Below are positions 42,928 through 60,252 of a stretch of 60,252 nt of DNA, piece after piece. The DNA is taken from assembly GCA_964400885.1 (NCBI GenBank), contig CAYNWH010000007.1, positions 1 through 60,252 of the forward strand. The letters are read 5' to 3'. The notes beneath the pieces are model-generated. The model had not been told where the DNA came from and searched no databases. It worked only from the letters and a program-made list of their open reading frames with translations. Position 1 is the stretch's first letter, and each line of letters opens with the position of its first letter. Made by a program: the position numbers and the translations under genes. This DNA comes from an uncultured Gammaproteobacteria bacterium. GTDB taxonomy: Bacteria > Patescibacteriota > Patescibacteriia > CAIXNZ01.

Positions 42928-43014
42928 GGAAGGGTGGCAGAGCGGTCGAATGCACCGGTCTTGAAAACCGGAGCCCCGGCAACGGGGCCGTGGGTTCGAA
43001 TCCCACCCCTTCCG
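42928..43014 (+). tRNA. tRNA-Ser (anticodon UGA)
   Basis: Acceptor GGAAGGG/CCCTTCC, anticodon arm CCGGT-CTTGAAA-ACCGG, long variable arm (GCCCCGGCAACGGGGC), T arm GTGGG-TTCGAAT-CCCAC. Confidence 0.85.
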
Positions 43015-43747: not shown

Positions 43748-43748
43748 G

Positions 43749-43778
43749 GCCTTAATGCCTAATAACTAATGCCTGAAA
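43749..43778. repeat. heptamer word array
   Basis: CCTTAAT GCCTAAT AACTAAT GCCTGAA. Confidence 0.65.
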
Positions 43779-44438
43779 TTATTGCCAAAAAGCGCCATCA
43801 ACTTTCCAGGCATCGTTTTGTTTAACTAAGTTTAAAATTATATCCTGATAAAAAATGCGCGGATTATTAATATCATTTTTAAATTCTTGTCTCTGAGTTT
43901 TTATTCTTATTTCTGCTTTGCCTGCTCCTTCATCTAAATTTAAAACCTCGCTGGAAATTGCTTTTGTTTCCAACGCATAATAAATATCTATATTGGGATT
44001 TTGTTTCTGCAACTCTGCTTTATATGTTTGCTGCACCCAATTACTCATGGAATTTGTCATAAAACTATCAAGATCATCTAAATTGGTATAATTACTTTGG
44101 TTGGAATAACTGCCAAATCTTTCAGCAAAAGCTTGGGCCACAAATAAAACATTGGCTTGCTTTTGCTGCTCTATTTCTGGAGCTGCAGCTCCGCCCAAAT
44201 CCGCTAAGACTTCGGAATCTGGATTATTAAAAGTATTTGGCATCACAGTCTGTCCTACTGGTAAAACTGGAACTTGATTTAAATTAGTATTAGCATTAAC
44301 CAAGCTCGGTGGCGGCGCTTTAAAATAAACCAAAGCTAAGTAAATTAGTGCTGCAATTATTAAAAGTAATAATAATAATAAAATTAGCCAAATTAATCGC
44401 TTACTTTTTGTTAATTTCTGTTTTGTTTTTTCAGCCAT
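43779..44438 (-). CDS. bitopic membrane protein; possible VirB8/TcpC-like (NTF2-like) component
   Basis: Short basic N-terminus, one TM segment (LIWLILLLLLLLIIAALIYLALVYF), then a ~130-aa C-domain ending LVKQNDAWKVDGAFWQ, as NTF2-like folds often do. Last gene of the VirB4 operon. Fold assignment is an inference. Confidence 0.4.
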   Translation of the reverse strand: MAEKTKQKLTKSKRLIWLILLLLLLLIIAALIYLALVYFKAPPPSLVNANTNLNQVPVLPVGQTVMPNTFNNPDSEVLADLGGAAAPEIEQQKQANVLFVAQAFAERFGSYSNQSNYTNLDDLDSFMTNSMSNWVQQTYKAELQKQNPNIDIYYALETKAISSEVLNLDEGAGKAEIRIKTQRQEFKNDINNPRIFYQDIILNLVKQNDAWKVDGAFWQ

Positions 44439-44475
44439 AAAATTTGCTAGTTATTATAAAATTTAAATTAAATAT

Positions 44476-46407
44476 TTATATCGGGATTTCTTCTACTCCG
44501 GCTGGCTTGGCTTGATCGGGCTGATTTTCGCTCTTCTCTGCTTCTTCTTCAAATTCTTTCTTCGCTGCTTCAATCTCTAAAAGCTGCCTAGGATCGCTGG
44601 TAATTAACTGATCTTCACTATAAGAAGCAACGACTTTAATTGCAGCATGTTTTCTGCCGGCAAAAAAGATACCCTCGCCTACGCCGCCTTCTAAAAGCAG
44701 ATATTTTTCTCCTTCTGTTAATAAAAAGATTTTTTGGATAGTGTCAATTGCCGCCGGGGATTGTCTTAAAAGCAATTGTAAAGCTGAATTAGTGACAATC
44801 GCCTTGCCATAGGGATTATTTAAGAAATCATTTACATCCTGGGTAATGGTAGTTACGCCCAAATAATATTTTCTGCATCTTTTTACTAAGGCATAAATAA
44901 ATTTAGCCGAGTCTTCCTGGGTCATCAGCCACCAAGCTTCATCAATGACTAAAATCCTTTTTTTAACTTCTGAGCGAACCACATTCCAGATATAATTAAC
45001 AATGCTGTAAATAGCAATAGGACGCAATTCATCTTCCAAATCCCTAACGCTAAAAGTCACCAATTGATTTTTGACATCAACATTAGTTGGTTTATTAAAT
45101 AAGCCGGCAAAAGTTCCTTCTGTATATTTCTTTAATCTCAAGCTCAAACTTTCTGCGCCTTCCATGCCTGCTAAAATATTCTGCAAATCTTGCATAACAG
45201 GCGGCTCAATTACTGCCAAGTCTGATTCCGGCGTAATATCTTTGCTGGCATAAGTTTCTAATAATGCGCGGTCTAAAATTGTATCTTCCTCTATTGATAA
45301 TTTACCCAGCATAATGCGCAATAAACCTTTCAAAGTAATAACTGCGCTGCGGATAATATCTTCGGTTGACGCATCGCCAATTGCTCTGGGCAAATCAAAT
45401 GGATTAATTTTATTTTTGGAAGCTAAGGAGATATCAATATATGTACCATTAACTGCTTCTGACAAATGGAGATATTCTCTTTCTGGATCAATAATAATAA
45501 CATCAGTACCTAACATTAAACTTCTTAAAACTTCTAATTTAATAGTATAACTTTTGCCAGCGCCTGAAGTCGCAAAAACTACAGAATTAGCATTTTGCAA
45601 AGAAAAACGATCAAAAAGGATTAAACTATTATTATGCCGATTTATGCCATATAAAATGCCGTTGTCCGAGGTTAATTCCGATGAAATAAAAGGAAAAGAA
45701 GAAGCAACGGGTGAGGTATTCATATTAAAAGAAACTAATAACTCATCAATGCCCAGGGGCAAAGTTGATTTGAATCCCTGCTCTGCCTGGTACAGCACCT
45801 TTTTGCTATAAATTAATTTGCCGCCAAAGATTGATTCAATTTCCGAAGTAAATTTATCTAGTTCTTCCAAACTATTAGCATAAATACTCGCATACAGAGC
45901 AAATTGGAAAAATTTTTCAATGCCTTGAGTTAATTCATCCCTTAATTTTTCCATATCCCGCAAGGCTGTCTCTAAAATCGGGTCGCGCGGCGCGCCTTTT
46001 TCAATATCTGACATTAATTGAGCCTGCAGATTGCCGACTCTCTTTTTCAGCTGTTTCAAAATTATTTCCGCTTTGACCGGATAAAAAAACATTGAGACAT
46101 CCAGAGTCTTGCTTAAATTTATTATAGGCGTAAACCAGCCAACGCTTATATAGCGCGGGTAATTCAAGACAAAAAGGGTTCTAATAAAAGTATCGCCTAA
46201 GACCAGATATGTAGGCTTAACTTCAAAAGCCGCCGGCGCAATTAAATCCTTAATATCAATTACGCCTTTGCGGTAAATTCTTTCTTCTTCCAGCGTAATT
46301 TGCTCTGCTTTAGCTGCTGCTTCTTCCTGAGCTTTTTTTTGGGCTGCTGTCAATTCTGCTGGCAGTGCTTCTTGTTTTGATGATTTTTGGGTAATGTCTA
46401 ATGCCAT
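44476..46407 (-). CDS. virB4: VirB4/TrbE-type T4SS ATPase
   Basis: Walker A FATSGAGKSYT, Walker B ILVIDEAWWL. The N-terminal segment (FIRTLFVLNYPRYISVGW) is typical of monoderm VirB4 homologues. Confidence 0.85.
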   Translation of the reverse strand: MALDITQKSSKQEALPAELTAAQKKAQEEAAAKAEQITLEEERIYRKGVIDIKDLIAPAAFEVKPTYLVLGDTFIRTLFVLNYPRYISVGWFTPIINLSKTLDVSMFFYPVKAEIILKQLKKRVGNLQAQLMSDIEKGAPRDPILETALRDMEKLRDELTQGIEKFFQFALYASIYANSLEELDKFTSEIESIFGGKLIYSKKVLYQAEQGFKSTLPLGIDELLVSFNMNTSPVASSFPFISSELTSDNGILYGINRHNNSLILFDRFSLQNANSVVFATSGAGKSYTIKLEVLRSLMLGTDVIIIDPEREYLHLSEAVNGTYIDISLASKNKINPFDLPRAIGDASTEDIIRSAVITLKGLLRIMLGKLSIEEDTILDRALLETYASKDITPESDLAVIEPPVMQDLQNILAGMEGAESLSLRLKKYTEGTFAGLFNKPTNVDVKNQLVTFSVRDLEDELRPIAIYSIVNYIWNVVRSEVKKRILVIDEAWWLMTQEDSAKFIYALVKRCRKYYLGVTTITQDVNDFLNNPYGKAIVTNSALQLLLRQSPAAIDTIQKIFLLTEGEKYLLLEGGVGEGIFFAGRKHAAIKVVASYSEDQLITSDPRQLLEIEAAKKEFEEEAEKSENQPDQAKPAGVEEIPI

Positions 46408-46419
46408 AATACAAAATTT

Positions 46420-47079
46420 TTATTTTTCTATGCCTAATTGGCTAATATCTTTTAATCTTTGATTTTGGGAAGTCTTAGGGTTATAAGCATTATAAAGAAG
46501 TTCTATTAAGCCCTGAGTATCTAAAACCACAGTATCCAAACCCATGCCTTTTAAATTTGCCTCTATATTAGAGACAATTAAGCCCAATTCCTGCTTATAT
46601 TCTAAAAATCTTTCCCTCTTTATTTTTATTAATTTGCCCGGGGAAAATGCTTCTTTTAGCCTGTCAAAAAAATTCTTAGATTTGGAGCCTAAAGGATTAA
46701 AAGGCACAACAATAAAAAACCTTTTAGTCATTATTTCGCCAATTTCGACCAGCTCATTAATATAATCAATGTAGCCAATAATCTGCATCCTTAATAATTC
46801 ATTGGTTTGTTTTTTTTGAGCATCTCTTAATCTTCTTAAATAATTGTCAATATCTAAGCGTCTAGACTGTATGACTATTTGTAATGGATGCTCTAAAGCA
46901 TTTAGAAATTCCATATAGCCGCTAATTAAAGCTTTTTGTTCATCATCGGATTTTAAAGCAAAATTAACGCTTGAGCATAAAATTACTGCTCTTAAAGTGC
47001 CGTCCTTTAAAAGGATAGTATCTTCCCTAATTTCCGCAATATCCAAATATTTTTGGGTTGAAGGTTGCGTTACAGCCAT
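46420..47079 (-). CDS. hypothetical cytoplasmic protein (219 aa) of the T4SS-like operon
   Basis: No TM segment. Ends 12 nt upstream of the virB4 start. No family recognised with confidence. Confidence 0.5.
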   Translation of the reverse strand: MAVTQPSTQKYLDIAEIREDTILLKDGTLRAVILCSSVNFALKSDDEQKALISGYMEFLNALEHPLQIVIQSRRLDIDNYLRRLRDAQKKQTNELLRMQIIGYIDYINELVEIGEIMTKRFFIVVPFNPLGSKSKNFFDRLKEAFSPGKLIKIKRERFLEYKQELGLIVSNIEANLKGMGLDTVVLDTQGLIELLYNAYNPKTSQNQRLKDISQLGIEK

Positions 47080-47084
47080 AGATA

Positions 47085-47118
47085 TTAATATTAGTGATTA
47101 TTAGTGATTAAAAATTAG
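47085..47118. repeat. TTAGTGATTA x2 tandem (same word family, reverse orientation)
   Basis: 47091-47100 and 47101-47110 are identical. Confidence 0.75.
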
Positions 47119-47126
47119 CGGTTTAG

Positions 47127-47546
47127 CTATTCCTCTTTATAAACTCCGCCTGTATTTACTACCAAAGACAAAGAAGTCAATCTTGATTCAGGAATAGGCG
47201 GCTTGGCAATAAATTCTTTTTTAACTTCTGCCTTTTCTACTGGCGGCAAGGAGGTTATTTCTTCTTTCTGCCAAATCCGCAATCTGGGACGCCTAAAGGT
47301 CTGAACAATATTTAAAAAGAAAAAATGGAAAGGCATGCCATTGACTCTGAAAAAAGCCACAATGCCAAAAATCGCTGTTACTATCAAAGCAATGATGGCA
47401 AAAGTATTAAAATAAAATATTTTATAAAAAATAAAATCCAGCATACCAGCCACCATCATTATCAAAAACTGCCTGGTAGTTATCGGACCGATAATTTTGG
47501 TCTCAACATCAAGAAATTGTGGGACTGAAAACTGTTCAAATGCCAT
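47127..47546 (-). CDS. PrgI-family (VirB3-like) membrane protein
   Basis: FSVPQFLDVETKIIGPITTRQFLIM followed by two TM segments, the layout of PrgI/VirB3-like proteins. Lies upstream of virB4. Confidence 0.6.
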   Translation of the reverse strand: MAFEQFSVPQFLDVETKIIGPITTRQFLIMMVAGMLDFIFYKIFYFNTFAIIALIVTAIFGIVAFFRVNGMPFHFFFLNIVQTFRRPRLRIWQKEEITSLPPVEKAEVKKEFIAKPPIPESRLTSLSLVVNTGGVYKEE

Positions 47547-47550
47547 ATCT

Positions 47551-48936
47551 TTAATATTTTAAACTTTTATTTAACTCCATAATAGCTCTAAATTCCTCCA
47601 AAGTTATAATTGGATTTTCTTTTAATATTTGGTCAAATGATTTACCTTGTTTAATTGCCCTATTCATAATATCAGCATAGGTCTTATAAAGCGGGCTGCT
47701 TTTCAAAGCTTTAATCCCCTCTGTCCTTTTAACGATTGATTCTTCTTCCAAGAGATCTAATTTATCTTTTATTTTATCAATTGCTGACTTAGGATCTTTA
47801 GAAAGGCGCCGCAAATCTTCTATTTTAAAAGCAGCTAATTCATCAATAGGACCATATAACTTAGCAGCAAATTTAACATCTTCAATTTTGGGCCTGGCTT
47901 CTGAAAAAGGTTTTTTGAAGAAAGGCTGCTTTTCCTCTGTCTGCGGCGCGCTAGGTGCAGACGTTACTGGCGGCATAACTGGCTGAGAAACAGGTTCAGG
48001 TTTGGGAACTGGCTTTGTCTCAATCTTTTTTTCTGGCTCTTTTTCTTCTTTAGTAGTTAAAGCTGGCGGCGGTGGCGTTATTTCTTCCCTGCTTTCTAAA
48101 AATTCTTCCTCATCTTCTATCTTTTTTATTAAAGGACTAGCCGTCAGCTCTTGAGCTTTTTTCTCTTCTTCCATTAATTCCTTTTTAATCGCTTCTTTTT
48201 TGCTTAATTCTGCAAATTTCATGCCCTTATCTTTAAGCAGCTGATCAATGGTAATATCTGCGCCTGTAATTTTGGTTTCTGTTTCTTCCGGCCTTTTAAC
48301 TTTGGCAGCCACGTCTATTTCTTCTTCTTTAGCTTCTTTTTCTTTAAAAACCTTTTTTTCTTTTTCTAATTCCTGGCTAATTAAATCCCTGATTTTAACT
48401 CCCTGATTTGCATAACTGGCTTCAATATTTTTTAAAATCTTAAGCAAATTCTGTCCCTCACTGTATTTCAAACCCAAGCCGCCAATTTTATTGCTTCTGG
48501 TTAAAATATCTAATGTTTCGCTGTCATCTCTAATATCGCGAAACCAATTAAAAATAATGTCCTCAAATCTCTTTTCATAACGTTCACTGATTTTTAATTT
48601 TGCCTGTTTTTCTATTGCCTTGATAATATCTTCAAGTTTTGCCTGCACTGGCTCGCTGACTCCTGCCTGCCTTACAACATTTTCCGGCAACAAAGGAAAT
48701 AATTCATTTTCCAGATCATAAGTCAAATCTAAAACTAAATTAAAATTTAAATTAGCTTTTTCCTGAATTGCCAGATCAAGTTCATCTTCCTTTATCTTGC
48801 CGCTAAAATAATCGATTAAAATTTGTCTTATAATATCTTCCTTTTTTTTCTCAATTTTATATCTATCGATTAATTCATCAAGTTTAGTTGCAACCTCTAT
48901 TTTATCAAAATATTCTTGAATATTAAAATCTGTCAT
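47551..48936 (-). CDS. acidic/lysine-rich hypothetical protein (461 aa) of the T4SS-like operon
   Basis: Highly charged, with a central KE-rich and P-rich linker. No TM segment. Ends 4 nt upstream of the next gene's start. Confidence 0.5.
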   Translation of the reverse strand: MTDFNIQEYFDKIEVATKLDELIDRYKIEKKKEDIIRQILIDYFSGKIKEDELDLAIQEKANLNFNLVLDLTYDLENELFPLLPENVVRQAGVSEPVQAKLEDIIKAIEKQAKLKISERYEKRFEDIIFNWFRDIRDDSETLDILTRSNKIGGLGLKYSEGQNLLKILKNIEASYANQGVKIRDLISQELEKEKKVFKEKEAKEEEIDVAAKVKRPEETETKITGADITIDQLLKDKGMKFAELSKKEAIKKELMEEEKKAQELTASPLIKKIEDEEEFLESREEITPPPPALTTKEEKEPEKKIETKPVPKPEPVSQPVMPPVTSAPSAPQTEEKQPFFKKPFSEARPKIEDVKFAAKLYGPIDELAAFKIEDLRRLSKDPKSAIDKIKDKLDLLEEESIVKRTEGIKALKSSPLYKTYADIMNRAIKQGKSFDQILKENPIITLEEFRAIMELNKSLKY

Positions 48937-48962
48937 AATTATAAATTTTAGAGCTGAAAAAA

Positions 48963-51900
48963 TTATTTTTCTATCAAAGCGCCGGAAATCATGGTATTCA
49001 TTGCTGTTTCCATATCAGCCACTAGGCCCTGAACTTCTTCAGCAGTCAGGTCTTTACGTGTTCTGGCAAAATCCTCCAAGCGCTTTAATCTGGCCGTATA
49101 TTCTTTAGCTAATTGTTCATTTAATTTAGCGCCTCTTCTTTTTAATTTCGTTTCATAAGCAGACATGGCTTTTCTGACCTTATACAAACCTTTTTGTAAT
49201 GATTGTTTAACCTCGCCCTTAGCACCCTGCTGCTGGGCCGTAGCTAAATCAGCTTGGCTTATTTCTGGTAAGCCGCTAATTTTAACCTGATCACCTTCAG
49301 GCGTAACGCCAATATCAGAAAACCCAACATCTTCAAGTACCTCCTGGTTAACCGCGCCAGCAGCCAAACTTCGCTTAAGCTGGGATTCTCTGTGATTAAC
49401 CATTTGTCTGGCCCGATTTTCTGCTGTATCAGCTGAAACACCTCGTGATTGCAAAGCTTTTCTGATTTCAGCAATAACTTGCCCGCGATTGCGGAATTGT
49501 CCCGTCGGTTTATCAAAATTACTTTCTGCTAAAGTTTGTTTATTTTGGCTTTCGGTCTGCATAAATTGATTCATGTCATCTATTTCCATAACGCCAGGCA
49601 CAGGCTGCGGCCTTTTAGGTAAAGACGGCATAACAGTTTGCCTTGAGCCATTAATAATTTTAGCTTTAAGAAACTGCTTGCCAGCCTTATATTGATTAGT
49701 GGCATAATCACTAACAGAATCCACTGTCCTGCCTTTTAAAGCTAAAATACTATCCATTCTTTCTTTGCCAATAGCTCTTTCTGCTAATCTGGATAATCTG
49801 CCTCCGGCTGGCACTGGCGGTGCTTCAGGTGCTGGCCCTGCTGCTGGTGCTGGCGGTACAGTGGGCGGCTGACCAGCCCCACCCCTTGGGCCTTGAGCAT
49901 AATCATTAGCTTTCATACCAGTTGGCAAATACTCATCTCCCAGAATCAAATGGCCTTGGCTAACTCCGGTTGGCGCAGTATCATCTTTACGCCGTTCGCC
50001 ATTTGACTGATATTCAGCTGTGGCTGCCTCATACATTTTATTAAGCTGTTTTCTTTCAGAATCAGAAAATTGAGCCATACTATCCGGATTAGATGCAACT
50101 TCTTCAATGGCTGACGCAATATTTCTTCTAGCGCCCGGATTATAGCGGCCATAATTTTCTGTTTCCTCACCATATGCCATTAATTCATCTTTCCAAAATT
50201 CATTGCGGTCTTCACCTGTCTCAGGATCAAGCTTGCGCCGAGCAAACTTGCTTTGCTCAGCCATTTGGCTTTGCTCACTGATTTTCATTCTCCTGACTGA
50301 ATCTTTATATTCTTCTGCCGGCGTAGTAGTTTTTGGCTTTATCAAACCTTCTTCTGTCACATATAAATTATTAGTCCTCATATGACGGCCCGTTTCGTTT
50401 TTGTAATCCCGGCCTAATTGCTCAGTAAATTCAAAAAATGGCCGATCTCCCATTGTGCGGCTGAATTTCTTAGTAAAATCACCAACATCTTTAGTATCTA
50501 TCCAGCCGTTTTTAGCGCCTTGGGACATTAAAGCCCGCGCTTCCCTTAAATCGCCTTTTTTATTAGCTGCACCTAATCTTTTGCGCCAGACATTAGGATT
50601 TAAAAAAGCGCCTTCAGAATTTAACCTTTTAGTATCCTTTTCTTCCCATTGCTGCCTGACTCTTTCCACTGCCATTTTTCGCGGACCAAATCTTGAGCGA
50701 GCAGTAGCGCTTACTCTTTCAGCCGCTTCTTTTCTGCCTTCAGCTGTAGCATATCTTAAATATTTATTGCGCCGCGCATAATCACCGACAGCCTGCATCG
50801 CACCCCTGACTGGCGCACCAGCCGCTCTGACAGGAGCCATAGCAATGCCCTGCGCAGCTGCGCCAGCTCTTCTGGCCCCTCTTTCCAGCCTGCCCGCTGT
50901 TTGGTTTCTAATGGCGTTAAACCCACCAGTGGCATAGCCAGAACCAACCACGCCCATCCGGCCTGTGAAATACAAACCGCCAACCAGCATAATAATGCCC
51001 ATCATAAACCCTACTGCTCCCTCTGCCGTACCAGCGGGTGAATTAAGGCCATTCACATTATTAGTTATTTCACTTTGCTTAAAGCCGCCACTAACAGCGT
51101 CTTGGGTAATGTTTTGAGAAACACCATTCATGCTAATAATGGCAATCCACAGGAAAAAAGCTAAAAATGGCCCGACCATACAGTATTTAAAAAACTCACC
51201 CCACCATTGCTGGGATAAAGAAGCGATTTTACCGCCGGCTGGCTCAAAAACCCAGGAGAAAAAAGCTAAAGGCGAAAACACAATCAAAATCCATAAAGCC
51301 ACAATTCTAAAAGCCAAAATCACGCAAAAAATCGCGACTACAATCGTAGCAATAATAACAAATATTAAACCAAAGATACTACCTACCATTGAATCTATGT
51401 CCGCATGACTAGTGCCTGCCTGCACATCATAATTATATTTAAATAAATCTGCTGAGCCAAAACCATTTATCAAATTGCCTTGAGTAATATCTTTAAAGGA
51501 TTTAACAAAAGTTATCATAATCACCTGAAAAAAATCAATTATCAAACCAGCAATAGTCCGGCTAAAATTAACCAAAATCGCCATAATTAATAAACGGCCT
51601 AAAAGCTTGTTATAAGAATATTTTTCAATTTTCAAAACTGTGGCAAAAGCGATCAAAAGCAAACCCAGTATAAAAAACATATTAACAATATCGCGGATAA
51701 TCACCCAGCCTTTTTGCACATAAGAATTATAAATAAAATTATTATATAAGCTTAACATCACTAAAAGTTTAACCAATAAAATCAAAACCTTGCCAACTAA
51801 ACTTATCAGGGTCTGAACAATAAAATTAATAATGGAAATGCCAACCGATTTGGCTGCTCCCATAATATCCATATTAGTAGCTGAAACTCGTTCTATGGGT

Positions 51901-51974
51901 ATTAAAACCAAAACTAAAAGCATTACCAAAAATACGGCCAGCAATAATTTTTTATTTTTTATTTTTTTCAGCAT
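48963..51974 (-). CDS. polytopic membrane protein, VirB6/TrbL-like N-domain with a ~650-aa hydrophilic C-terminal extension
   Basis: About 7 TM segments in the first ~340 aa. The tail contains PPTVPPAPAAGPAPEAPPVPAGG and is visibly GC-richer, which explains the many shadow ORFs. Position next to the VirB3/VirB4 genes. Confidence 0.5.
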   Translation of the reverse strand: MLKKIKNKKLLLAVFLVMLLVLVLIPIERVSATNMDIMGAAKSVGISIINFIVQTLISLVGKVLILLVKLLVMLSLYNNFIYNSYVQKGWVIIRDIVNMFFILGLLLIAFATVLKIEKYSYNKLLGRLLIMAILVNFSRTIAGLIIDFFQVIMITFVKSFKDITQGNLINGFGSADLFKYNYDVQAGTSHADIDSMVGSIFGLIFVIIATIVVAIFCVILAFRIVALWILIVFSPLAFFSWVFEPAGGKIASLSQQWWGEFFKYCMVGPFLAFFLWIAIISMNGVSQNITQDAVSGGFKQSEITNNVNGLNSPAGTAEGAVGFMMGIIMLVGGLYFTGRMGVVGSGYATGGFNAIRNQTAGRLERGARRAGAAAQGIAMAPVRAAGAPVRGAMQAVGDYARRNKYLRYATAEGRKEAAERVSATARSRFGPRKMAVERVRQQWEEKDTKRLNSEGAFLNPNVWRKRLGAANKKGDLREARALMSQGAKNGWIDTKDVGDFTKKFSRTMGDRPFFEFTEQLGRDYKNETGRHMRTNNLYVTEEGLIKPKTTTPAEEYKDSVRRMKISEQSQMAEQSKFARRKLDPETGEDRNEFWKDELMAYGEETENYGRYNPGARRNIASAIEEVASNPDSMAQFSDSERKQLNKMYEAATAEYQSNGERRKDDTAPTGVSQGHLILGDEYLPTGMKANDYAQGPRGGAGQPPTVPPAPAAGPAPEAPPVPAGGRLSRLAERAIGKERMDSILALKGRTVDSVSDYATNQYKAGKQFLKAKIINGSRQTVMPSLPKRPQPVPGVMEIDDMNQFMQTESQNKQTLAESNFDKPTGQFRNRGQVIAEIRKALQSRGVSADTAENRARQMVNHRESQLKRSLAAGAVNQEVLEDVGFSDIGVTPEGDQVKISGLPEISQADLATAQQQGAKGEVKQSLQKGLYKVRKAMSAYETKLKRRGAKLNEQLAKEYTARLKRLEDFARTRKDLTAEEVQGLVADMETAMNTMISGALIEK

Positions 51975-51992
51975 TTATCTTGAAATTTATTT

Positions 51993-54900
51993 TTAGGGTG
52001 AAGTAATAGAATAACCAGCTTCTGTTTTTGTTGCAGTATTCCCATTATTATCAGTGGCTTTAATAGTTAAATCACCGCTAGAAGTAATAGTAATAGCGCA
52101 ATCTACTTGAGTTGAGCCAGTCTGGCTGCAAGTAAAATCAGATGTGCCTGCTGTGGTATTTGTTGTATCAACTGTCACATTACTGGCATTAATACCTGCA
52201 CTAGCCGCCACAGAAATCGTTGTATCAGTTATGCTGACAGTCGCTGTTTTCGTAGTTACATTTATTGTAATATTCAAACTGGCTGCCGGACTATTAACCT
52301 TTTCACTGCACTGATCATTTTGCCAGCTGCAGCTCGGATTCAAATTGCAATCCTGCTCTATTTTATAATAAGGGCATAAATCTACTAAGAAAGGAAAATA
52401 AGTCAAACAAGCATAGGGCTGATAATTAAAAGAACCATAAGCACTGTAAGCATTTTGGTAAATGCTATCATAAAGAGGATTAAGAGTGTCAGCTTCTAAG
52501 CACATGCCTTCTAAACCAAGGAATTCTTTCACATTTTCAATCGGGCTGCAGACGCCATTTTGACCTGCCCCGCTGCCGCTGGTAATGCCGCTAATTAGCC
52601 CTGTTTGGCAATCCGTATTATCTTTGCAAACCTTACCTTTGATATCACTAGGGGAAGTACAAATTTTAGTCACAGTAGGCGGCGTAGCCGTAACAGTACC
52701 CAGCGGAAAATTAACTTTAGTGCCTAAAGCATTTGCTTCTTCGTAATTGCATAAATTGCCTGACTGATCCAGCTGCACGCTCTGGCTGTAAAGATTTAAT
52801 AAATCTTTATAACCAGGTTGCTTAATTAAATCGTAAAGCATTGGTGAATCCTGCGCTGGGAAAATTTTACAAATCGGCTCTACAAAACGCAGATCTGACT
52901 GACCAGCTAAATTATTGACTAAAGGATAAGTGCTAAAGCCTTTTTCTAATTCAGATTCAATAGGCAAACGATCAGGTATGCTGTAGCCGGAAAAATCACC
53001 AGCGCGCCATTGCACTAAATCACTTAAGGATCCGGCGCCAAAACGATAAATATAGCCTTTTTTATTAACATAATCGCTAATTCTCTTTATCACCAAAGGC
53101 TGGTTATCAAGATCGTAACGCACATTGTCTTTTTCCGCTGAAAATTTAATGCATTCCCCGCCTGAACTTTCAATACATAAACCAGTCTCAGTGCAAACAC
53201 CCGGCTGCCAGACTTGCTCTGCTGCCAGACAATCACTTTCTTTTTTATATTGGGGATCACTGCAATAGCTCGTACAGACTGCCCATTCCTGGCAATTGCG
53301 GTCAGCCTGAACTTTTAAAATTTCTGCACTATTTCTATCAGTATTTAAAAACTGTACACAGCCCGCATTCCAGTCAACTGCAGTGCAGCTTGAACGATCC
53401 AAATTAGATCCCTGGTCAATTACAAAATAACTATCTTCAGTATTATCTTTAACTTCAACCTGATCATAAGTTACATATGAATCAGGGCAATTACCCTTAT
53501 TAGCGCCTTGATTTAGATTAAGCGGCGCATATAAGACTAGTTCAAAATCTTGCAAGTCTTCTCCTGTGTCAGCCGGCACAGTATAAAGCGCTTCTACTTT
53601 TTTCCAGTCACTCTCTGCGCTAAAAACATAAAGCGGTCCTTGAGCCACATTAGGATCTAAAGAATTAAATTCAAAAGCCGCTTCTGGCAAAGGACATTGA
53701 TCACCTCTGCCTTTAGCATCTTCTGGTACGCGGTAATAAAATGAAATTTTATAAGTTTTACCTTTTTCTAAACGGGCAATAGTCTGGCTAATAGCATAGG
53801 TAGGCACATCTGTTTCCTCTAAAGAACAATCAGTATTTGGGTATAAATATGTACTAGGGCAATCCTGGCTTGTTCTCTTAATTAATTTAATAGCACGGCT
53901 ACCCAGTTTAGGATTATCTGTTTCTATTTTCTGGCCGCCAGAACTAGCTGCTTGAGTTTGCCAGTTAGAAAGCAGGCCAGTCGGATCATTTGATTCAAAA
54001 CTGCCATTGAAAACAAAATTAGGATTAATGTCCACGAATTCTGTGCAGCCATTCCATTTGCTATCACATTCACCCACAAAGCCTTTATATTTATTAGCTT
54101 CTTCAACTTTATAAATAGTAAAAGGAGAAGCTAAGCAAGTAGCAGTATCAGTTAGCCATTCGCCGTTTTGGAACTCACAGATTTCTTGATCTTTAATCTC
54201 AGCGAAAATAGGCGCGCACTGGTTGTATTTTGAACTCCAGCCGCCGCCATTAGCCTGGCAACTTTGAGCTGTCTCAAAATTCAAAGCCGCACAGCCTAAA
54301 GTCGGACTGCCCTTTTTAAACCAGCCTTCCACTCCCTGGCCATTAAGCGTGCTAGTGGTGTATTGGCAAAGCTTAGCTGGATCAATTTTAAAATATTCAG
54401 CATTGCCTGAGTCATTAATTAATTCAGTGCAGCCCAATGATTCTTCGTTGCACATAATAGCATTAGGCACATTTATATATTTATCCGGATCATTTTTAAT
54501 ATAAATATCATTAAAATTAACTGTTACACCCTGGAAAGTTGACTGGCCTAATTTTTTACAGCCTTTATTATCTTTAGTGCAGCTATACTTATCATTAAGC
54601 ACCAAAGTCACTAAATTATCCTGTGGCACAGTATAATCATCTAAAAACGAGGCGTTATCATCATTAAACAGCTGTTTATTAGAGTTAGTTGAATTTTGAG
54701 TATCAATCAAAGCCTGGCAGCCAACAGCGCTGGAGCGGCATAAATTCGTAAAGGATTTAAGGTTATGGGTCTGGCTCAATAAATCCTGATAAGCCTGACA
54801 ACCCAGCATAGCGCCTTCTTCTTCAGCGCCAAAAATATTTTGATTACAGCTGTCTGGCGTCTGCCAGCTATTTTTAACTACATAGACATTATCTTTAACC

Positions 54901-57900
54901 ACTTTTAACAAAATATTATCCAGATAAACTTTGCTATCCAGCGAGTCAAATATTAAACTATTATTGGCAACATTATCCCAGCTGACGAAAACCGGGCCTA
55001 AAGTGTAATTGCGCCATTCATTAGTTAGACGCAAATTAGTTGCCAAAGTAGCAAATTCTTCCAAAGTTGAATCCTGAGAATCAGGCACAGCAGTGCTGAA
55101 TTTAGCTGTAATAACTTCACCGGCTGGGTTGTCGGTCTTAGCCCAGAAAGAAAGCGTATATAAATTATTTTGCTGAATATCAATAAATTTATGTATGGTA
55201 GTGACTGGCGCTGAAACAAATAAAGAATGCCCACCCACTGTCACTGATTCGCCTACTCTAGATAAGCCTTCTGAGGAAGTACCCTCTGCTCCAGCATACC
55301 AATCTAAAGCTCCTGCTCCGTCTTCAAAAGTATCAAAGCTTTGGACATAAACATTATTGCCCTGATTGCCAATAAAAGTTCGGCAGCCATTAGCTTGGGC
55401 TGAACAAGAAATCGCTTCACTAGGAATAGCATCATAAATACAAGACTGGGTATCGCTTTGCCAGCGGCCATTAGTCTTAAGACAATTATCCTGATTTGAT
55501 TCTGTTTTTCTAAAAGGATGGCAATCATCAGCAACAGAAATAGTTTTTCTAATATCTCGGTAATAATTGACTCCATTACTATCAAAGAAATTAACACAAT
55601 TAAAATCAAATTCGCCCAAAGTCAAACGGCAATCGCCAGAATCATCAATAGTTTTTGGCGCGCCAGTTGCAGTATCTTGCTGAAACTCATATTTAATCAA
55701 TTGAGGCGGTCCTGAAGCTGAACCCTGCCAAGTGAAAAATGTTTTTTCTCCCAAACCTAAATTGGGCTTAATGCATTGCCTTAGATAAGTAAAATATCCA
55801 ATACCCTCGCCTCCCGCAGCTACAGCATCTAAATTAGTAAACTGGGCACAGCCTACTTCTGCTAAAGTGCAAGTCTTGGCTGTATTAGGAATAAAATAAT
55901 TATATAAAGGATCTGGCTCTGGTTCATATAAAACCGGGTCTTGCTTAAAGGTATCATAACCCACGCATTCCGCCGGACAATAATCAGTCAAACTAACCAC
56001 GCCTGGTATTTGGGGATCACCATTTACTGGCGTATAAATTTGGCAGCCGACTTCTTCTGGCTCACAAACTTTCATAAAATTGCCACAAATTGAATCATCT
56101 GGCTTATATTTATAACAAGCTGTGACATTTGGCACAAAGACTGCTGAACTCGTAGCTGTCGGCTGATCCCAAAAACCACCTGCTCCTTCTGGGTCTTCAC
56201 AAGCTATTTTATTATCAATATTTAAAACTGGCGGCGGATCACCAGGTCCATAACCATGGCAATCTAACCGAGCCGGCGGCTTTTTATAATATAATTTATT
56301 GTTAGCGTCATAATCAGTATAAGCTGTCACGAAATTATAATTTCTAACCTGGTCTAAAGAATTAAGCGATAAATCAACCCCATCCAGATAAACAGTCGTT
56401 CCAGCTTGCCCGCCGGGTAAATAAATCATGATATCCAATTCTGTGCCACCAGCACCAGTAATTAAAGTGCTATCAACTTGATTATAATATTGATCAACAT
56501 AAAACTGTTTGCTATTTAGCTCGCTTTGAGTCTGTCTCATCTTAGCCAAATTAAATTTGATCGGCTGGCTCAGAGGCAAATTAGCTTTTAAATAAGCAGT
56601 CGCTGTATAAGTATCGCCAGCCCTGGTTAAGATCTTGTTTTCATCAGCAAACTTACTTTTATAAACCAGCACTAATGCTTGATTATCTGTCAAATCACCG
56701 ATATTAATTGCCAATTTGCTTAAACCTTGCCACACATCTGTGCCATCTCTGGAAACAAATGCCCGATCACTAAATGGCCCTTCGCCGCGCCAAGTCCCTA
56801 AAAGATTATTGCAATCTTCTTTTGTAGAATTATATAAACTGGCTCCCTGACAAAATTCATGCCAGCTGCCATTATTAGATTCACAACTAGGTTGGCAATT
56901 TGTATCATCTGGGCCTGGTTCACAAGTATCTAAATTTGATAATTTTTCTTCGACTTGTCCATCTACTTCGCATTTTTGCTGCCAAGTGCCGCCATTAGCT
57001 TGACATTTTTCTTCAGCTTCATTAACTCCAGTCGTAGCCGGATCATCAGCAAATTGCGGATTCTCACAAAGATTATATTTCAAAATGCTACTGGTGCAAA
57101 ATCTTTTAAAATCACCAACATTAGCCAAGCAGTCTGTTTCATTCACATTATTATTAATAGCACCTAAACATTGATAATCCCACGTCTGCCCATTAGCTAA
57201 ACATTCATCTTGGGTGATGCTTGTACCATCTAAACAATAACCGGACCAAGTACCATTATTCAATAAACAATCACTTTGATTATCATAGCCATAATTAAGA
57301 CAGGTTTCATTGTAAGTGCCTTGACAATCGGCTGCGCTAGCCACTTCATCCTTTAATCTTAAATCCCAATTAGCCGGGAAATTACCATCCGGAGCATATT
57401 CAAAGCTTGAATCTGCCACTAAATTATTAGCTGAATCGCGGTATAAGAAAAATTCATTACAGCCTTCATTTTGCCGATCACAGGTGCTAACATAACGATT
57501 TAAATAAATCCTGCTATCTGTTTGCCAAGCGCCGGCTAAATCAGCAGCAGTTGAATACCAAGTGCAGCCGGCATTGTTTGGGCCGCAAATATTGCTGCCG
57601 CTTAAAGTATTTTTTAAATAAGAAACAGTGCTGGCACCATTGAGACCAGTTACACTGTAAGTCCGACAACTATTAAATTCTGCTGGACAAGTATTCGCAG
57701 CAAATTGCCAGACATTTTTTTCTTTAACGCAAAAACCATAATTTTCATTTACACAGCCGCCCTTGCCATCCTCTGTTAAACAGCTGGCAAAATCCGGACA
57801 GCGCGAATATCTTTGGCTATTACTATTAGTCGTCAAAAGCTCACCATAAGGCTCAATATCGGTCTGCACTGCACAGCGCGTACTTGGCAATTTCAAAACC

Positions 57901-60233
57901 CAATTCGGATCAACTAAATTGCAAAAAGGTGATTCATTTTCATCAAAATCACCGCAAGTGCCAGAACCTGCCTTATCAAAACCATTCACTACATCTGCCA
58001 AGGTCGCATTAGCCACTTCATTTAATCTATTAATATTATAATTTCTAACATCATCTAATCCTTCCCCGCCGCCAGTAAAGGGCCTAAATAAACAATTTTG
58101 TAATCTTTGCGATTTAAAGGGATCACTTTGCTCATTAAAGCCAAACTTATCTGTAGCAGTGACATCACTAAAATCTTTATAAGCGCCATTATCCACTGTC
58201 TTGCGATAATTGCAATCTCTAATTAATTCAGCGGCTAACTCTAAGCCTAAAGGCACGACTCTAGCTTTTCTTAACTTTTTAATATTAGATAAATTATATG
58301 TGCCTGGCGCAGCTTCTTCGCCCCAAGAAAAAGTATAATCGCCTACTAATTTGCCTTTATCAATTGCATCTTTAATAGTCAAGCCATCATTAATAGCAAG
58401 GGCAAAATTGGGATCAATTACATTATTATAAAGATTAGGGTTTGCCTGGCCTTTGATATTTAATTGAAAGTCTGCCAATAAATTAATGTCTTTAAAAGAA
58501 AAATTAACAGTGAATTTTTGGGAAATCTTTTCAATATAACTTTGGATGCCTGCCGGCGAAGTGACTAATTCTTCAAATGGATTCCAGTTTGGCGAACCTG
58601 CTGGCGTTTGTAAAGCCGCTGCCCCGCCTTGCTGGGCTAAAAGGGTCTTTGTAGTTTCTACTGTTTGCTGAGGATTTAATAAATCAAGCAGCTTCAAAGC
58701 CAATTGATTCCAAAGAGTCTCTAAAAAAACGCCCAAAGCATCTGCTACTATCTCCTTAGTATAATATGAAGCAACACTGCCGCCTGCTGCTAAATCTTTT
58801 TCAGCTCTGGCTCTAATTAAATTAGAAGGTGTCCTAATCGTGCCAGCAATGCGGTCAGTCACTGATTGCCAGCCCTGATCAATCGTGGCCTGCAAACGGC
58901 TATTAAGCCAAGCATTAAAGCCCTCTTTCATGATTCCGCTGGTTATCTTATCATAAGCATTAAATTCATTAGCTTCTGGGTCAAAAAGCCCGGCAGCTAA
59001 TTGGGAATTATAAGCTGCACTGCCTTCCAAAAGATCAGGTACAAAATTCTGGTTAATCTGGCTTTGCAAATATTCATAGCCGCCTTTAATCGCATTGGCA
59101 ATATTAACTACCTGGCCGGCTTTTTGGTTAAATTCTGTTTGATAAGTTAAAGCCAGGGCCTGATCCTGCACTGGGCATTGGAAAGGATTAAAATTTAAAC
59201 CGCCTAAAATTGAATCGCAAGGTTTTTGATTTAAGGCACAGGCTGTCCTGTTTTGGCACTGGCCATAATTAGTAATAGTATTATTTAATCCTGCTATATA
59301 TGGCTCTATTTTCTTTAGCCAAGCATCTTTGATTATCGGCATATTTTCCGGCGTAATGGGATAACGGCCAACGCTCAGGTCGGCTGGCGTATCAGCCACT
59401 CTATGAGTGATTATATTTTCCACATCTGCACGCAAAGAAGCTGTAAAAGCATCTAATGCTGTAGCCGCACCCTTTAAGTCTGTTTGTACTGGGGGTTCAG
59501 AACAAGTAGTAATATTTCCATTTATTTGTCCTGTCTCACAATTTTTTGCATAAGCCTGAGCTAAAGCTGTATCCCATCTTTTCAAACTAGTATCATTAGC
59601 AATGGAAGAATTTAATCTGCCTACGTTCTCATCAAAAGTGCCGCCTGCACCAATGCCAAAATCAGCAGAAATAAAATCTGTAAGCTTTCTTTGCCCAATT
59701 TCTTCCCAATGGCTTCTTAATTGAGTCCAGGTACAGTCTGGATTATAAGAGCCCGACCATTCTGGGAACATGGGAATATTTAAGGTTAAATTGATGGCTA
59801 TACGCGGATCCAAAGTACAAATATCCAGACCAGTCAAATTTTTCAAAGTTGTCTGGACAAAATCTCCGGCAGCCCTGTCAAACCAACTATTCCAAAAATT
59901 AGGATCACTAATAAATTGCGGCCCCTCACCCTTACCACCGCTTGCTACCCACATAGCTGATTGCTTAGCAATCAAATTAGCTAAATTGCCCAAAATATTT
60001 TTAAAGAAAACTGCCACAATTTCATCCCAGATCTTGGTCGTAATCTTCTCTGTTGTGTCTCCAGCAAACCACATTGCTTGAAGGGTTTCCTGGGGAACAT
60101 CAAATACAGGGATCTGGGCTTCGGCTTTTTTAGTATTAAATAAGAAAAGGGTGTAAAAATTACTAAAAACAAAAATTATAGTAATAAATAAAATTATCAC
60201 TTTTTGCAGTTTTGATTTGCCTAATTTAAACAT
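51993..60233 (-). CDS. giant (2,746 aa) secreted/anchored Cys-rich surface protein with CBM-like and Ig-like segments
   Basis: Uninterrupted 8.2-kb ORF. N-terminal signal/anchor (VIILFITIIFVFSNFYTLFLF). Repeated Cys motifs, three CBM4/9-like openings (NGSFE.., SSFEY.., SFDTFEDG..) and a T/S-rich beta C-terminus. Confidence 0.8.
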   Translation of the reverse strand: MFKLGKSKLQKVIILFITIIFVFSNFYTLFLFNTKKAEAQIPVFDVPQETLQAMWFAGDTTEKITTKIWDEIVAVFFKNILGNLANLIAKQSAMWVASGGKGEGPQFISDPNFWNSWFDRAAGDFVQTTLKNLTGLDICTLDPRIAINLTLNIPMFPEWSGSYNPDCTWTQLRSHWEEIGQRKLTDFISADFGIGAGGTFDENVGRLNSSIANDTSLKRWDTALAQAYAKNCETGQINGNITTCSEPPVQTDLKGAATALDAFTASLRADVENIITHRVADTPADLSVGRYPITPENMPIIKDAWLKKIEPYIAGLNNTITNYGQCQNRTACALNQKPCDSILGGLNFNPFQCPVQDQALALTYQTEFNQKAGQVVNIANAIKGGYEYLQSQINQNFVPDLLEGSAAYNSQLAAGLFDPEANEFNAYDKITSGIMKEGFNAWLNSRLQATIDQGWQSVTDRIAGTIRTPSNLIRARAEKDLAAGGSVASYYTKEIVADALGVFLETLWNQLALKLLDLLNPQQTVETTKTLLAQQGGAAALQTPAGSPNWNPFEELVTSPAGIQSYIEKISQKFTVNFSFKDINLLADFQLNIKGQANPNLYNNVIDPNFALAINDGLTIKDAIDKGKLVGDYTFSWGEEAAPGTYNLSNIKKLRKARVVPLGLELAAELIRDCNYRKTVDNGAYKDFSDVTATDKFGFNEQSDPFKSQRLQNCLFRPFTGGGEGLDDVRNYNINRLNEVANATLADVVNGFDKAGSGTCGDFDENESPFCNLVDPNWVLKLPSTRCAVQTDIEPYGELLTTNSNSQRYSRCPDFASCLTEDGKGGCVNENYGFCVKEKNVWQFAANTCPAEFNSCRTYSVTGLNGASTVSYLKNTLSGSNICGPNNAGCTWYSTAADLAGAWQTDSRIYLNRYVSTCDRQNEGCNEFFLYRDSANNLVADSSFEYAPDGNFPANWDLRLKDEVASAADCQGTYNETCLNYGYDNQSDCLLNNGTWSGYCLDGTSITQDECLANGQTWDYQCLGAINNNVNETDCLANVGDFKRFCTSSILKYNLCENPQFADDPATTGVNEAEEKCQANGGTWQQKCEVDGQVEEKLSNLDTCEPGPDDTNCQPSCESNNGSWHEFCQGASLYNSTKEDCNNLLGTWRGEGPFSDRAFVSRDGTDVWQGLSKLAINIGDLTDNQALVLVYKSKFADENKILTRAGDTYTATAYLKANLPLSQPIKFNLAKMRQTQSELNSKQFYVDQYYNQVDSTLITGAGGTELDIMIYLPGGQAGTTVYLDGVDLSLNSLDQVRNYNFVTAYTDYDANNKLYYKKPPARLDCHGYGPGDPPPVLNIDNKIACEDPEGAGGFWDQPTATSSAVFVPNVTACYKYKPDDSICGNFMKVCEPEEVGCQIYTPVNGDPQIPGVVSLTDYCPAECVGYDTFKQDPVLYEPEPDPLYNYFIPNTAKTCTLAEVGCAQFTNLDAVAAGGEGIGYFTYLRQCIKPNLGLGEKTFFTWQGSASGPPQLIKYEFQQDTATGAPKTIDDSGDCRLTLGEFDFNCVNFFDSNGVNYYRDIRKTISVADDCHPFRKTESNQDNCLKTNGRWQSDTQSCIYDAIPSEAISCSAQANGCRTFIGNQGNNVYVQSFDTFEDGAGALDWYAGAEGTSSEGLSRVGESVTVGGHSLFVSAPVTTIHKFIDIQQNNLYTLSFWAKTDNPAGEVITAKFSTAVPDSQDSTLEEFATLATNLRLTNEWRNYTLGPVFVSWDNVANNSLIFDSLDSKVYLDNILLKVVKDNVYVVKNSWQTPDSCNQNIFGAEEEGAMLGCQAYQDLLSQTHNLKSFTNLCRSSAVGCQALIDTQNSTNSNKQLFNDDNASFLDDYTVPQDNLVTLVLNDKYSCTKDNKGCKKLGQSTFQGVTVNFNDIYIKNDPDKYINVPNAIMCNEESLGCTELINDSGNAEYFKIDPAKLCQYTTSTLNGQGVEGWFKKGSPTLGCAALNFETAQSCQANGGGWSSKYNQCAPIFAEIKDQEICEFQNGEWLTDTATCLASPFTIYKVEEANKYKGFVGECDSKWNGCTEFVDINPNFVFNGSFESNDPTGLLSNWQTQAASSGGQKIETDNPKLGSRAIKLIKRTSQDCPSTYLYPNTDCSLEETDVPTYAISQTIARLEKGKTYKISFYYRVPEDAKGRGDQCPLPEAAFEFNSLDPNVAQGPLYVFSAESDWKKVEALYTVPADTGEDLQDFELVLYAPLNLNQGANKGNCPDSYVTYDQVEVKDNTEDSYFVIDQGSNLDRSSCTAVDWNAGCVQFLNTDRNSAEILKVQADRNCQEWAVCTSYCSDPQYKKESDCLAAEQVWQPGVCTETGLCIESSGGECIKFSAEKDNVRYDLDNQPLVIKRISDYVNKKGYIYRFGAGSLSDLVQWRAGDFSGYSIPDRLPIESELEKGFSTYPLVNNLAGQSDLRFVEPICKIFPAQDSPMLYDLIKQPGYKDLLNLYSQSVQLDQSGNLCNYEEANALGTKVNFPLGTVTATPPTVTKICTSPSDIKGKVCKDNTDCQTGLISGITSGSGAGQNGVCSPIENVKEFLGLEGMCLEADTLNPLYDSIYQNAYSAYGSFNYQPYACLTYFPFLVDLCPYYKIEQDCNLNPSCSWQNDQCSEKVNSPAASLNITINVTTKTATVSITDTTISVAASAGINASNVTVDTTNTTAGTSDFTCSQTGSTQVDCAITITSSGDLTIKATDNNGNTATKTEAGYSITSP

Positions 60234-60252
60234 AGAAAATTTTTACCTATAA

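Follow-up and report, generated by a model that had tools for sequence, protein, structure and literature searches.

Known systems and the place of the locus

Patescibacteria, which make up perhaps a quarter of bacterial diversity, obtain nucleotides, lipids and amino acids from host cells, and their type IV secretion system (T4SS) is the only one that is known to be essential for the growth of its own bearer (PMC12857230). In Southlakia epibionticum, Wang et al. (2023, PMC10633639) found that the T4SS gene cluster is essential for epibiotic growth and that it combines a Gram-positive conjugative ancestry and pilins with no recognisable coupling or relaxase proteins. A survey of 3,035 genomes by Quiñonero-Coronel et al. 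(2025, PMC12102498) revealed a monophyletic Patescibacteria VirB4 clade that is nested in the MPF_FATA class. The authors found that TrsD, PrgI, VirB6 and VirB2-like pilins are widespread, that VirB8 homologues are nearly confined to the class ABY1 and that relaxases are rare; they linked the ABY1 T4SS to comF, recG and radA, proposed the import of DNA or other macromolecules and did not detect an adhesin. In this study, we analysed a stretch of 60,252 nucleotides from an uncultured bacterium that is placed in Patescibacteriota by GTDB (contig CAYNWH010000007.1 of assembly GCA_964400885.1, positions 1 to 60,252; hereafter, the window), in which seven co-directional genes at 43779-60233 encode a putative T4SS. 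With a probability of roughly 80%, this locus is a chromosomal class-ABY1 version of the Patescibacteria-clade T4SS, which derives from the monoderm MPF_FATA conjugation machinery and has shed the relaxase, the coupling protein and the wall hydrolase. The reading as a T4SS-derived, non-conjugative apparatus in a candidate phyla radiation (CPR) genome, which had been proposed in a first-pass annotation of this DNA, was thus supported in its core. The seven genes, all on the minus strand, are as follows:

43779..44438, minus strand: VirB8/PrgL-like bitopic protein, 219 aa (AlphaFold2 fold and Foldseek)
44476..46407, minus strand: VirB4 ATPase body of the CD1110 / MPF_FATA type without the canonical N-terminal domain, 643 aa (NCBIfam, Pfam, BLASTP)
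46420..47079, minus strand: TrsD-like protein, detached VirB4 N-terminal domain, 219 aa (NCBIfam TrsD/TraD, BLASTP)
47127..47546, minus strand: PrgI/VirB3 homologue with two transmembrane (TM) helices, 139 aa (PF12666)
47551..48936, minus strand: p461, an orphan, predicted all-alpha cytoplasmic protein, 461 aa (AlphaFold2 model, no family)
48963..51974, minus strand: putative extended VirB6-like polytopic membrane protein, 1,003 aa (topology, position, sub-threshold TrbL similarity)
51993..60233, minus strand: giant disulfide-rich surface protein, candidate adhesin or host-contact component, 2,746 aa (CBM_4_9)

The locus adds no new kind of system. It shares VirB4, TrsD, PrgI/VirB3, a putative VirB6-like protein and a VirB2-like pilin of the PF18895 family with the T4SSs of the Patescibacteria clade, as well as the chromosomal location, the lack of a relaxase or coupling protein nearby, the comF/recG/radA neighbours and the ABY1-enriched VirB8 homologue. 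The initial estimate of its novelty was therefore too high, because the system, its lack of a relaxase and the comF/recG/radA context in ABY1 had already been published. However, the survey leaves the unannotated neighbours unnamed, and the window adds the giant CBM/Cys-rich protein, p461 and, in relatives, a thrombospondin type-3 (TSP3) repeat protein as conserved members; we found no description of these three families as operon members in the literature. What is added here is modest: the ABY1-specific partners, structural support for the VirB8-like subunit and an explicit reading of the split VirB4. The Southlakia locus differs in its array of six pilins and in its peptidase and lysozyme genes, which are essential; in the window, a single extended, Cys-rich pilin and no hydrolase were found.

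Gene order and conservation

The gaps between the seven genes in the ORF (open reading frame) list of the window are, from low to high coordinates, 37, 12, 47, 4, 26 and 18 nt; a further 31 nt separate the last gene of the cluster, which encodes the VirB8-like protein, from comFC downstream. On recomputation, the ORFs, their strand and lengths, the gaps and the comFC spacing matched the first-pass annotation exactly. A consensus scan returned 18 terminator-like sites in the region, compared with a shuffled expectation of 16.4; all of them were intragenic and none was found in the six intergenic gaps, as had also been claimed before. This layout would fit a single transcript for the seven-gene cluster, and comFC is probably part of the same transcription unit. 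No recognisable Shine-Dalgarno (GGAGG-like) motif was seen in the 19-22 nt directly preceding the start codons of the seven genes and comFC, where the sequence is A/T-rich (43748-60252). The window edge lies 19 nt upstream of the ATG of the giant gene.

A degenerate-pattern scan with one genome per species yielded no fewer than 578 genes related to the VirB6-like gene; 80 loci were kept. In these loci, tblastn detected the components in the same order and on the same strand with the following frequencies: the giant protein in 44, the VirB6-like protein in 80, p461 in 65, PrgI in 63, TrsD in 63, VirB4 in 60 and the VirB8-like protein in 54, with the shortfalls mostly due to contig ends or divergence. 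Dozens of other genomes carry all seven genes with this order and strand, and the genes are therefore regarded as real and not as chance ORFs. This survey of other CPR genomes placed the full gene order in dozens of ABY1 genomes: the related loci almost all belong to Uhr-, Falkow-, Buchanan-, Magasanik-, Kerfeld-, Komeili- and Veblenbacteria (lineages of the GTDB class ABY1) or to unclassified Patescibacteria, and some of the records carry other taxon names. Homologues of three components that were searched for in a protein database all came from Patescibacteria. The closest relative (locus L083; 72% identity, 227-kb contig) has the identical seven genes, which are flanked by KsgA and a 277-aa TSP3-repeat protein upstream and by comFC, RecG and DksA downstream.

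The conserved core of the machine

The 643-aa protein exceeded the curated cut-off of the NCBIfam model conju_CD1110 (355.5 bits, cut-off 325), matched Pfam P-loop_TraG (E 2e-25) and carries both Walker motifs (Walker A FATSGAGKSYT at aa 278 and Walker B ILVIDEAWWL at aa 485), which bears out its earlier designation as VirB4. Its identity to the CD1110-type ATPases of Firmicutes and Actinobacteria was 30-36%. VirB4 matched 60 ABY1 loci in tblastn, mostly with 820-1,118 bits and with lower values where a contig end cuts the gene, whereas the best match among 72,556 plasmid records reached 379 bits and 35% identity. Using this similarity as a proxy, the VirB4 of the window appears to group with those of Patescibacteria and not with those of conjugative elements. 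The PHROGs label 'terminase large subunit' (phrog_2666), which was obtained for both VirB4 and TrsD, was rejected as a generic P-loop, HerA/FtsK-like resemblance because VirB4 has a curated NCBIfam match.

The cytoplasmic 219-aa protein, whose gene lies 12 nt upstream of virB4, had been left without a family in the first-pass annotation but could be assigned as TrsD. It matched the NCBIfam TrsD/TraD model (E 9e-9) as well as positions 2-95 of the CD1110 VirB4 profile, and showed similarity to the protein encoded upstream of a short Pontibacillus VirB4 (E 1e-27); its orthologue in the closest relative carries PF26593 TraC-like. In BLASTP, aa 7-100 of this protein aligned to aa 22-126 of the full-length 783-aa VirB4 of a Clostridium perfringens plasmid (E 3e-5), while aa 32-584 of the ATPase aligned to aa 192-754 of the same protein (31% identity over 570 aa, E 2e-82). 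It follows from these two alignments that VirB4, which is one protein in C. perfringens, is split over two genes in the window, one for the TrsD N-domain and the other for the ATPase body. The 139-aa protein passed the cut-off of Pfam PF12666 PrgI (E 5e-10, 40.2 bits, cut-off 27) and has two hydrophobic segments, in agreement with the PrgI/VirB3-like call made before. BLASTP gave no match between it and the C. perfringens PrgI; the Pfam profile alone connects both.

The bitopic 219-aa protein had no match in Pfam, NCBIfam or a PDB sequence-profile search, and hhalign found no similarity between its family and a C. perfringens 240-aa protein. Its 175 homologues are all from Patescibacteria. An AlphaFold2 model that was based on 54 homologues had a predicted local distance difference test (pLDDT) score of 83.8 overall and of at least 95 per 10-residue block from about aa 100. 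The model consists of a TM helix (aa 2-38), a disordered linker and an NTF2-like ectodomain of three helices and a four-stranded sheet. Foldseek ranked the VirB8 domain of the pCF10 protein PrgL highest (7aed, E 1.6e-4), and CagV, DotI, IcmL-like proteins, TrwG and R388 VirB8 came next; the TM-score of CagV, when normalised to the target, was 0.69-0.71, and generic NTF2 folds scored similarly in the same list. The protein is thus modelled with a VirB8/PrgL-like fold, and the earlier guess of an NTF2/VirB8-like C-domain holds at the level of the fold.

The assignment of the 1,003-aa protein is weaker. It has an N-terminal domain of about 345 aa with a signal peptide and about seven TM segments, followed by a 658-aa tail that is Cys-free and basic, with a net charge of +15 over the first 120 aa past the last TM segment. 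Because the tail is Cys-free and strongly basic directly after the last TM helix, it is probably cytoplasmic. The PPTVPPAPAAGPAPEAPPVPAGG linker (Pro/Ala) at aa 703 and the GC-richer tail (0.447, compared with 0.351 in the N-domain), both of which had been pointed out before, are present. Among the 115 homologues in the protein database, all of which belong to Patescibacteria, the length varied from 600 to 1,630 aa (mostly 850-1,300) and conservation was limited to the N-domain. No Pfam or NCBIfam match was obtained for the protein of the window, and a tblastn search of its N-domain against the 72,556 plasmids gave none. PF04610 TrbL was matched by three of 33 family members with a best E of 3.5e-5, and the one match that was checked individually remained below the cut-off (19.6 bits, cut-off 25.9). 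Aligning the family with hhalign to the positionally equivalent TrbL-like 779-aa protein of Pontibacillus gave E 1.7e-4 and a probability of 50%, and there was no similarity to the TrbL_2-like protein of C. perfringens. The weak TrbL similarity, together with the topology and the invariant position ahead of PrgI, points to a putative 'extended VirB6'; the similarity is sub-threshold but convergent. The VirB6/TrbL call of the first-pass annotation is therefore tentatively kept on the basis of topology, position and convergent similarity, while the curated cut-off was never reached. Searches with the hidden Markov model consensus of the VirB6-like, VirB8-like and p461 families against Pfam gave nothing meaningful, and comparisons of these three proteins and the giant protein with PDB sequences, both as single sequences and as profiles, returned only noise (TatA/FliL TM helices and coiled coils).

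Lineage-specific partners: the giant protein and p461

The giant protein has a single hydrophobic segment, which is N-terminal and would act as a signal or an anchor, and 100 Cys (3.6%). Cx6C pairs occur nine times, for the most part within a C-x5-GC-xx-[FYL] context, and Cx10C repeats form a run. A carbohydrate-binding domain, CBM_4_9, was detected above the cut-off (43.4 bits, cut-off 25.9). The Cys-rich surface character that was described for the protein earlier was therefore confirmed. In an alignment of 13 giant sequences, dozens of Cys were invariant or nearly so, and the domains that were found in these members were CBM_4_9 (10/13), dockerin (2/13) and fn3 (1/13). No match was found among PDB sequences. 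In 17 loci, the gene that directly precedes the VirB6-like gene encodes an orthologue of 2,000-3,200 aa with 3.5-6.2% Cys, and tblastn matches on the same strand upstream of the VirB6-like gene extend to at least 44 of the 80 loci, down to 22-30% identity. Other loci have an ORF of 200-540 aa immediately upstream of the VirB6-like gene, many of them with giant-like matches further upstream. These features describe what is predicted to be a secreted or anchored, folded, disulfide-rich and glycan-binding extracellular protein, and make it a candidate adhesin or host-contact component. Large Cys-rich extracellular proteins have been noted in CPR genomes generally (PMC4736985), and we found no paper in which a giant protein of this kind is linked to a T4SS in Patescibacteria.

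A TSP3-repeat gene is located immediately upstream of the giant gene in at least 18 of the related loci. Because the window ends before the start of the giant gene and relatives carry the TSP3 gene at this position, the giant gene, which had been described as leading the operon, is probably not the first of the cluster, and a TSP3-repeat gene probably precedes it beyond the window edge at 60252. In L083, this gene (950-1783, plus strand) encodes the 277-aa protein, which is bitopic with bacterial thrombospondin type-3 (Ca-binding) repeats, and is preceded by KsgA; the TSP3 gene was also seen upstream of the giant gene in the loci L003, L004, L005, L006 and L001.

The second partner, p461, is Cys-free and has no TM segment. 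Its AlphaFold2 model (mean pLDDT 79.6) is confident for three helical modules and also contains a Pro-rich linker that is disordered. The model had no Foldseek match in PDB (best E 2.6) or BFVD, the sequence had none in Pfam, NCBIfam or PHROG, and only proline-rich noise was returned when 40 divergent relatives were scanned against Pfam, which agrees with the previous statement that the 461-aa protein has no family. The family itself is large, with 2,717 clusters at 50% identity for E<=1e-3, of which 1,915 have E<=1e-30, and in 65 of the 80 loci its gene is flanked by the VirB6-like gene on one side and PrgI on the other. The most conserved part is the C-terminal region of about 100 aa. Longer members of 550-730 aa (P0388, P0335 and others) seem to duplicate the middle helical module, and the motif R-F-x2-I-x3-Y-L-R-D-x-R-D...G-G-L-G-L occurs twice in the family consensus.

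Neighbouring genes

Three further genes of the window are relevant to the machine:

43025..43747, minus strand: comFC (TIGR00201 comF, DZR_2, Pribosyltran)
34429..35796, plus strand: extended VirB2-like T4SS pilin, 455 aa (PF18895)
33714..34409, plus strand: membrane-anchored DsbA-like thiol-disulfide oxidoreductase (Thioredoxin_4, DSBA, N-terminal TM segment)

The comFC product has the DZR_2 and Pribosyltran domains and a sub-threshold match to TIGR00201 comF (E 4e-31, 108 bits, cut-off 233.6). Among the 47 informative loci, 39 have comFC (16), radA (14) or dsbA-radA (9) in a co-directional position less than about 1 kb downstream, often at a distance of 0-100 nt. The pilin gene lies about 8 kb from the end of the operon on the other strand, within about 20 genes of virB4. 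Its product matched PF18895 T4SS_pilin (29.0 bits, cut-off 26.6) and is composed of a signal peptide, a (PA)n linker, the pilin domain (aa 86-154) and a C-terminal domain of about 290 aa with 28 Cys. VirB2-type pilins usually have about 100-150 aa, and the 455-aa pilin is unusually long by comparison. The DsbA-like protein (Thioredoxin_4, E 6e-26; DSBA, E 9.5e-10) has an N-terminal TM segment. A pilin homologue is found downstream of the VirB8-like gene in four of the 47 loci, and the DsbA gene is placed directly between the VirB8-like gene and radA in nine; the latter position links disulfide formation to the Cys-rich partners of the T4SS, and DsbA probably helps the giant protein and the pilin, both of them Cys-rich, to fold. 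The label 'minimal', which had been given to the operon, is therefore not appropriate, as the VirB2-like pilin and DsbA genes lie about 8 kb away in the window and abut the operon in other genomes.

Near the pilin gene, a 417-aa protein (32456-33709, plus strand) has a TM anchor, a Pro-rich linker and an ectodomain without a Pfam match. Another ORF of 200 aa (31820-32422, plus strand), which shares 8 nt with the end of the Clp ATPase gene, has no family match; its N-terminal half is Lys/Glu-rich, its hydrophobic segments are C-terminal, and it might be a further small membrane or pilin-like component.

Comparison with other machines

The Firmicutes MPF_FATA T4SSs (CD1110/CTn-type; C. perfringens plasmid NZ_CP143494; PrgH-PrgI-PrgJ-PrgK-PrgL of pCF10, whose PrgL is the top fold match of the VirB8-like protein) have the same order of VirB6-like, PrgI, VirB4 and, further on, VirB8-like genes. 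The C. perfringens plasmid is laid out as MobC, relaxase, VirD4, TrbL-like, PrgI, VirB4 and SLT hydrolase, and the ABY1 locus corresponds to this layout without the genes for DNA processing and wall cutting but with lineage-specific additions. Outside the CPR, VirB4 had its highest-scoring match (379 bits, 35% identity) on the megaplasmid of Pontibacillus sp. ALD_SL1 (NZ_CP062975, 351.8-361.4 kb). This locus (L082, 4486-14039) shares two pilin-like genes, the 779-aa TrbL-like protein, PrgI/TraL, a TrsD-like protein and a short VirB4 of 621 aa. It lacks a relaxase within 9 kb, and genes for flagella and chemotaxis flank it. It differs in having a 1,050-aa DD-metalloendopeptidase after VirB4, no giant protein, no detected p461 homologue and no linkage to comFC/radA. 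The megaplasmid locus may represent a counterpart of the Patescibacteria-type system outside the CPR.

The plan of the 1,003-aa protein, i.e., a polytopic VirB6-type N-domain with a very large hydrophilic C-terminal domain, is the same as that of the Rickettsiales VirB6 paralogues and the F-type TraG (PMC12857230). However, there is no detectable sequence similarity to these extended VirB6 proteins, and the tail in the window is Cys-free, basic and probably cytoplasmic. H. pylori ComB and archaeal Ced are, as the window locus, relaxase-less and VirB4-driven machines, and ComB works together with ComFC-type proteins. ComB is, however, a diderm VirB2-10 system, and no ComEC gene is present in the window. 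The matches to CedB (39.8 bits, cut-off 700) and CedD (21.4, cut-off 600) were sub-threshold, so that the locus is not a member of the Ced family. Only the comFC/radA/recG linkage points towards the class of T4SSs that import DNA.

Proposed function and alternative explanations

Based on these features, the VirB6-like protein, PrgI and the VirB8-like protein would form a channel in a single membrane, to which TrsD would tether the VirB4 hexamer. The basic tail of the VirB6-like protein and p461 may form a cytoplasmic platform, a possible stand-in for the missing coupling protein. The pilin that is encoded about 8 kb away would form a VirB2-type filament or conduit, and the neighbouring DsbA would oxidise the giant protein and the pilin. 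The giant protein may bind host-surface glycans, probably with the participation of the TSP3 protein of relatives, and the machine would move macromolecules between the epibiont and the host cell. A 'host-contact' function of the locus, as was suggested earlier, is plausible on these grounds. As to the substrate, the contact-dependent import of host nucleic acid, which would be handed to ComFC, RadA and RecG, is tentatively favoured over export at somewhat less than an even chance; nucleic-acid handling is favoured because of the repeated operonic linkage to two different transformation genes. The complete scheme is considered quite unlikely as a whole: in it, the giant and TSP3 proteins would dock on host-wall glycans, a pilus with a Cys-rich tip and the VirB6/VirB3/VirB8 channel would breach the contact site, and p461 and the VirB6 tail would replace the coupling protein and pass DNA or RNA to ComFC, RadA and RecG. 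If it were true, p461 and the giant protein would be new, lineage-specific core T4SS subunits. The ABY1 T4SS operon has a giant glycan-binding protein, the p461 family and a ComFC/RadA module fixed to it class-wide. The giant protein is a candidate for the adhesin that was not detected by the published survey, and together with p461 and ComFC/RadA it provides concrete candidates for the contact and substrate-handling components.

Several points weigh against this interpretation. Synteny, topology and composition are the basis for the roles proposed for the giant protein, DsbA, p461 and the tail of the VirB6-like protein, and the VirB6 assignment was below the curated threshold in every search. 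In Southlakia, the deletion of comEC abolishes competence and is not lethal, while the T4SS is essential (PMC12857230), which implies that the essential role of the T4SS there is not ComEC-dependent DNA uptake. The adjacency of comFC/radA could be inherited synteny in very compact genomes. Furthermore, the visible part of the genome is 60 kb, and a coupling protein or a relaxase could be encoded elsewhere in it.

The last point also touches on the proposal of an integrated conjugative or mobilisable element, of which the locus would be the transfer module and whose relaxase, coupling protein and integrase would lie outside the window. VirB4, PrgI and TrsD are indeed homologous to conjugation proteins, two tRNA-Ser genes lie about 0.8-1.4 kb from the end of the operon, and coupling-protein homologues occur elsewhere in many Patescibacteria genomes (PMC12102498). 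Nevertheless, the proposal is very improbable. When all window ORFs of 100 aa or more were scanned against Pfam, none matched a relaxase, a coupling protein of the VirD4 type, VirB11, an integrase or a peptidoglycan hydrolase, which agrees with the first-pass annotation on the lack of a relaxase, VirD4, VirB11 and an integrase. The combination of an adjacent relaxase, VirD4 and integrase that would mark an ordinary element was not found in the 60 kb, where no search aimed at attachment repeats was made. VirD4, relaxase, MobC and SLT hydrolase probes, which were taken from a bona fide conjugative relative (the C. perfringens plasmid), gave zero tblastn matches in the window and 81 related loci (1.4 Mb), while the VirB4 positive control matched 61 loci. 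The flanks are housekeeping genes (comFC, RecG, DksA, MPG and RadA downstream and, in the closest relative, KsgA upstream), and the same chromosomal synteny extends over many genera. The GC content of the operon (0.32-0.41) lies around the window mean of 0.369. The published VirB4 trees indicate vertical, class-specific inheritance (PMC12102498).

A chromosomal Patescibacteria T4SS with the same components could also export proteins or effectors, a use that we consider possible but less probable than import, or could be purely a pilus or adhesin assembly device for host attachment with comFC/radA being incidental; taken together, these two options are also somewhat unlikely. They would be in keeping with the giant CBM protein and the pilin at the locus, with the tubular structures, possibly T4SS pili, that were reported at a parasite-host interface (preprint 10.64898/2026.06.21.733656) and with the comEC deletion, which separates T4SS essentiality from classical competence (PMC12857230). 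However, the operon yielded no candidate effector or cytoplasmic substrate with a secretion signal, T4SSs that translocate proteins normally rely on a coupling protein as well, Ptl and Brucella being exceptions (PMC12102498), and the tight co-directional linkage to comFC (16/47 loci) and radA (23/47) would be left unexplained. A different question is whether the giant protein, and the TSP3 protein of relatives, are parts of the machine at all or independent surface adhesins whose genes adjoin the T4SS operon. Extracellular proteins that are large and Cys-rich are common in CPR genomes whether or not a T4SS is present (PMC4736985), the additional 200-540-aa ORF lies directly upstream of the VirB6-like gene in many loci, and 36 of the 80 loci have no giant match, although this is partly due to contig ends and divergence. 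Such independence is nonetheless unlikely: the giant gene is spaced 18 nt from the VirB6-like gene with no terminator-like site, its same-strand position upstream of that gene is kept in at least 44 loci even at 22-30% identity, and DsbA and the Cys-rich pilin are also linked to the locus.

Other features of the window

The remaining genes of the window are of the housekeeping kind and encode RRF, HolB, MreB, glycosyltransferases, DapB, PheS/PheT, RseP, GlmM, a Clp ATPase, RadA, MPG, DksA and RecG, as well as three tRNAs. Two of the latter, the tRNA-Ser genes (anticodons gct and tga; 42377-43014), are placed between comFC and the 167-aa/RecG genes, on either side of a 23S_rRNA_IVP-family gene (42517-42882, plus strand). 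The region at about 10000-16000 has a GC content of 0.41-0.46, compared with about 0.33-0.34 in its flanks, and may be foreign DNA. It holds DapB and several ORFs without a Pfam match (12254-13726 and 15483-16868), and a sub-threshold match to OMP_b-brl (outer-membrane beta-barrel), which is odd for a presumed monoderm, was observed at 11719-12441.

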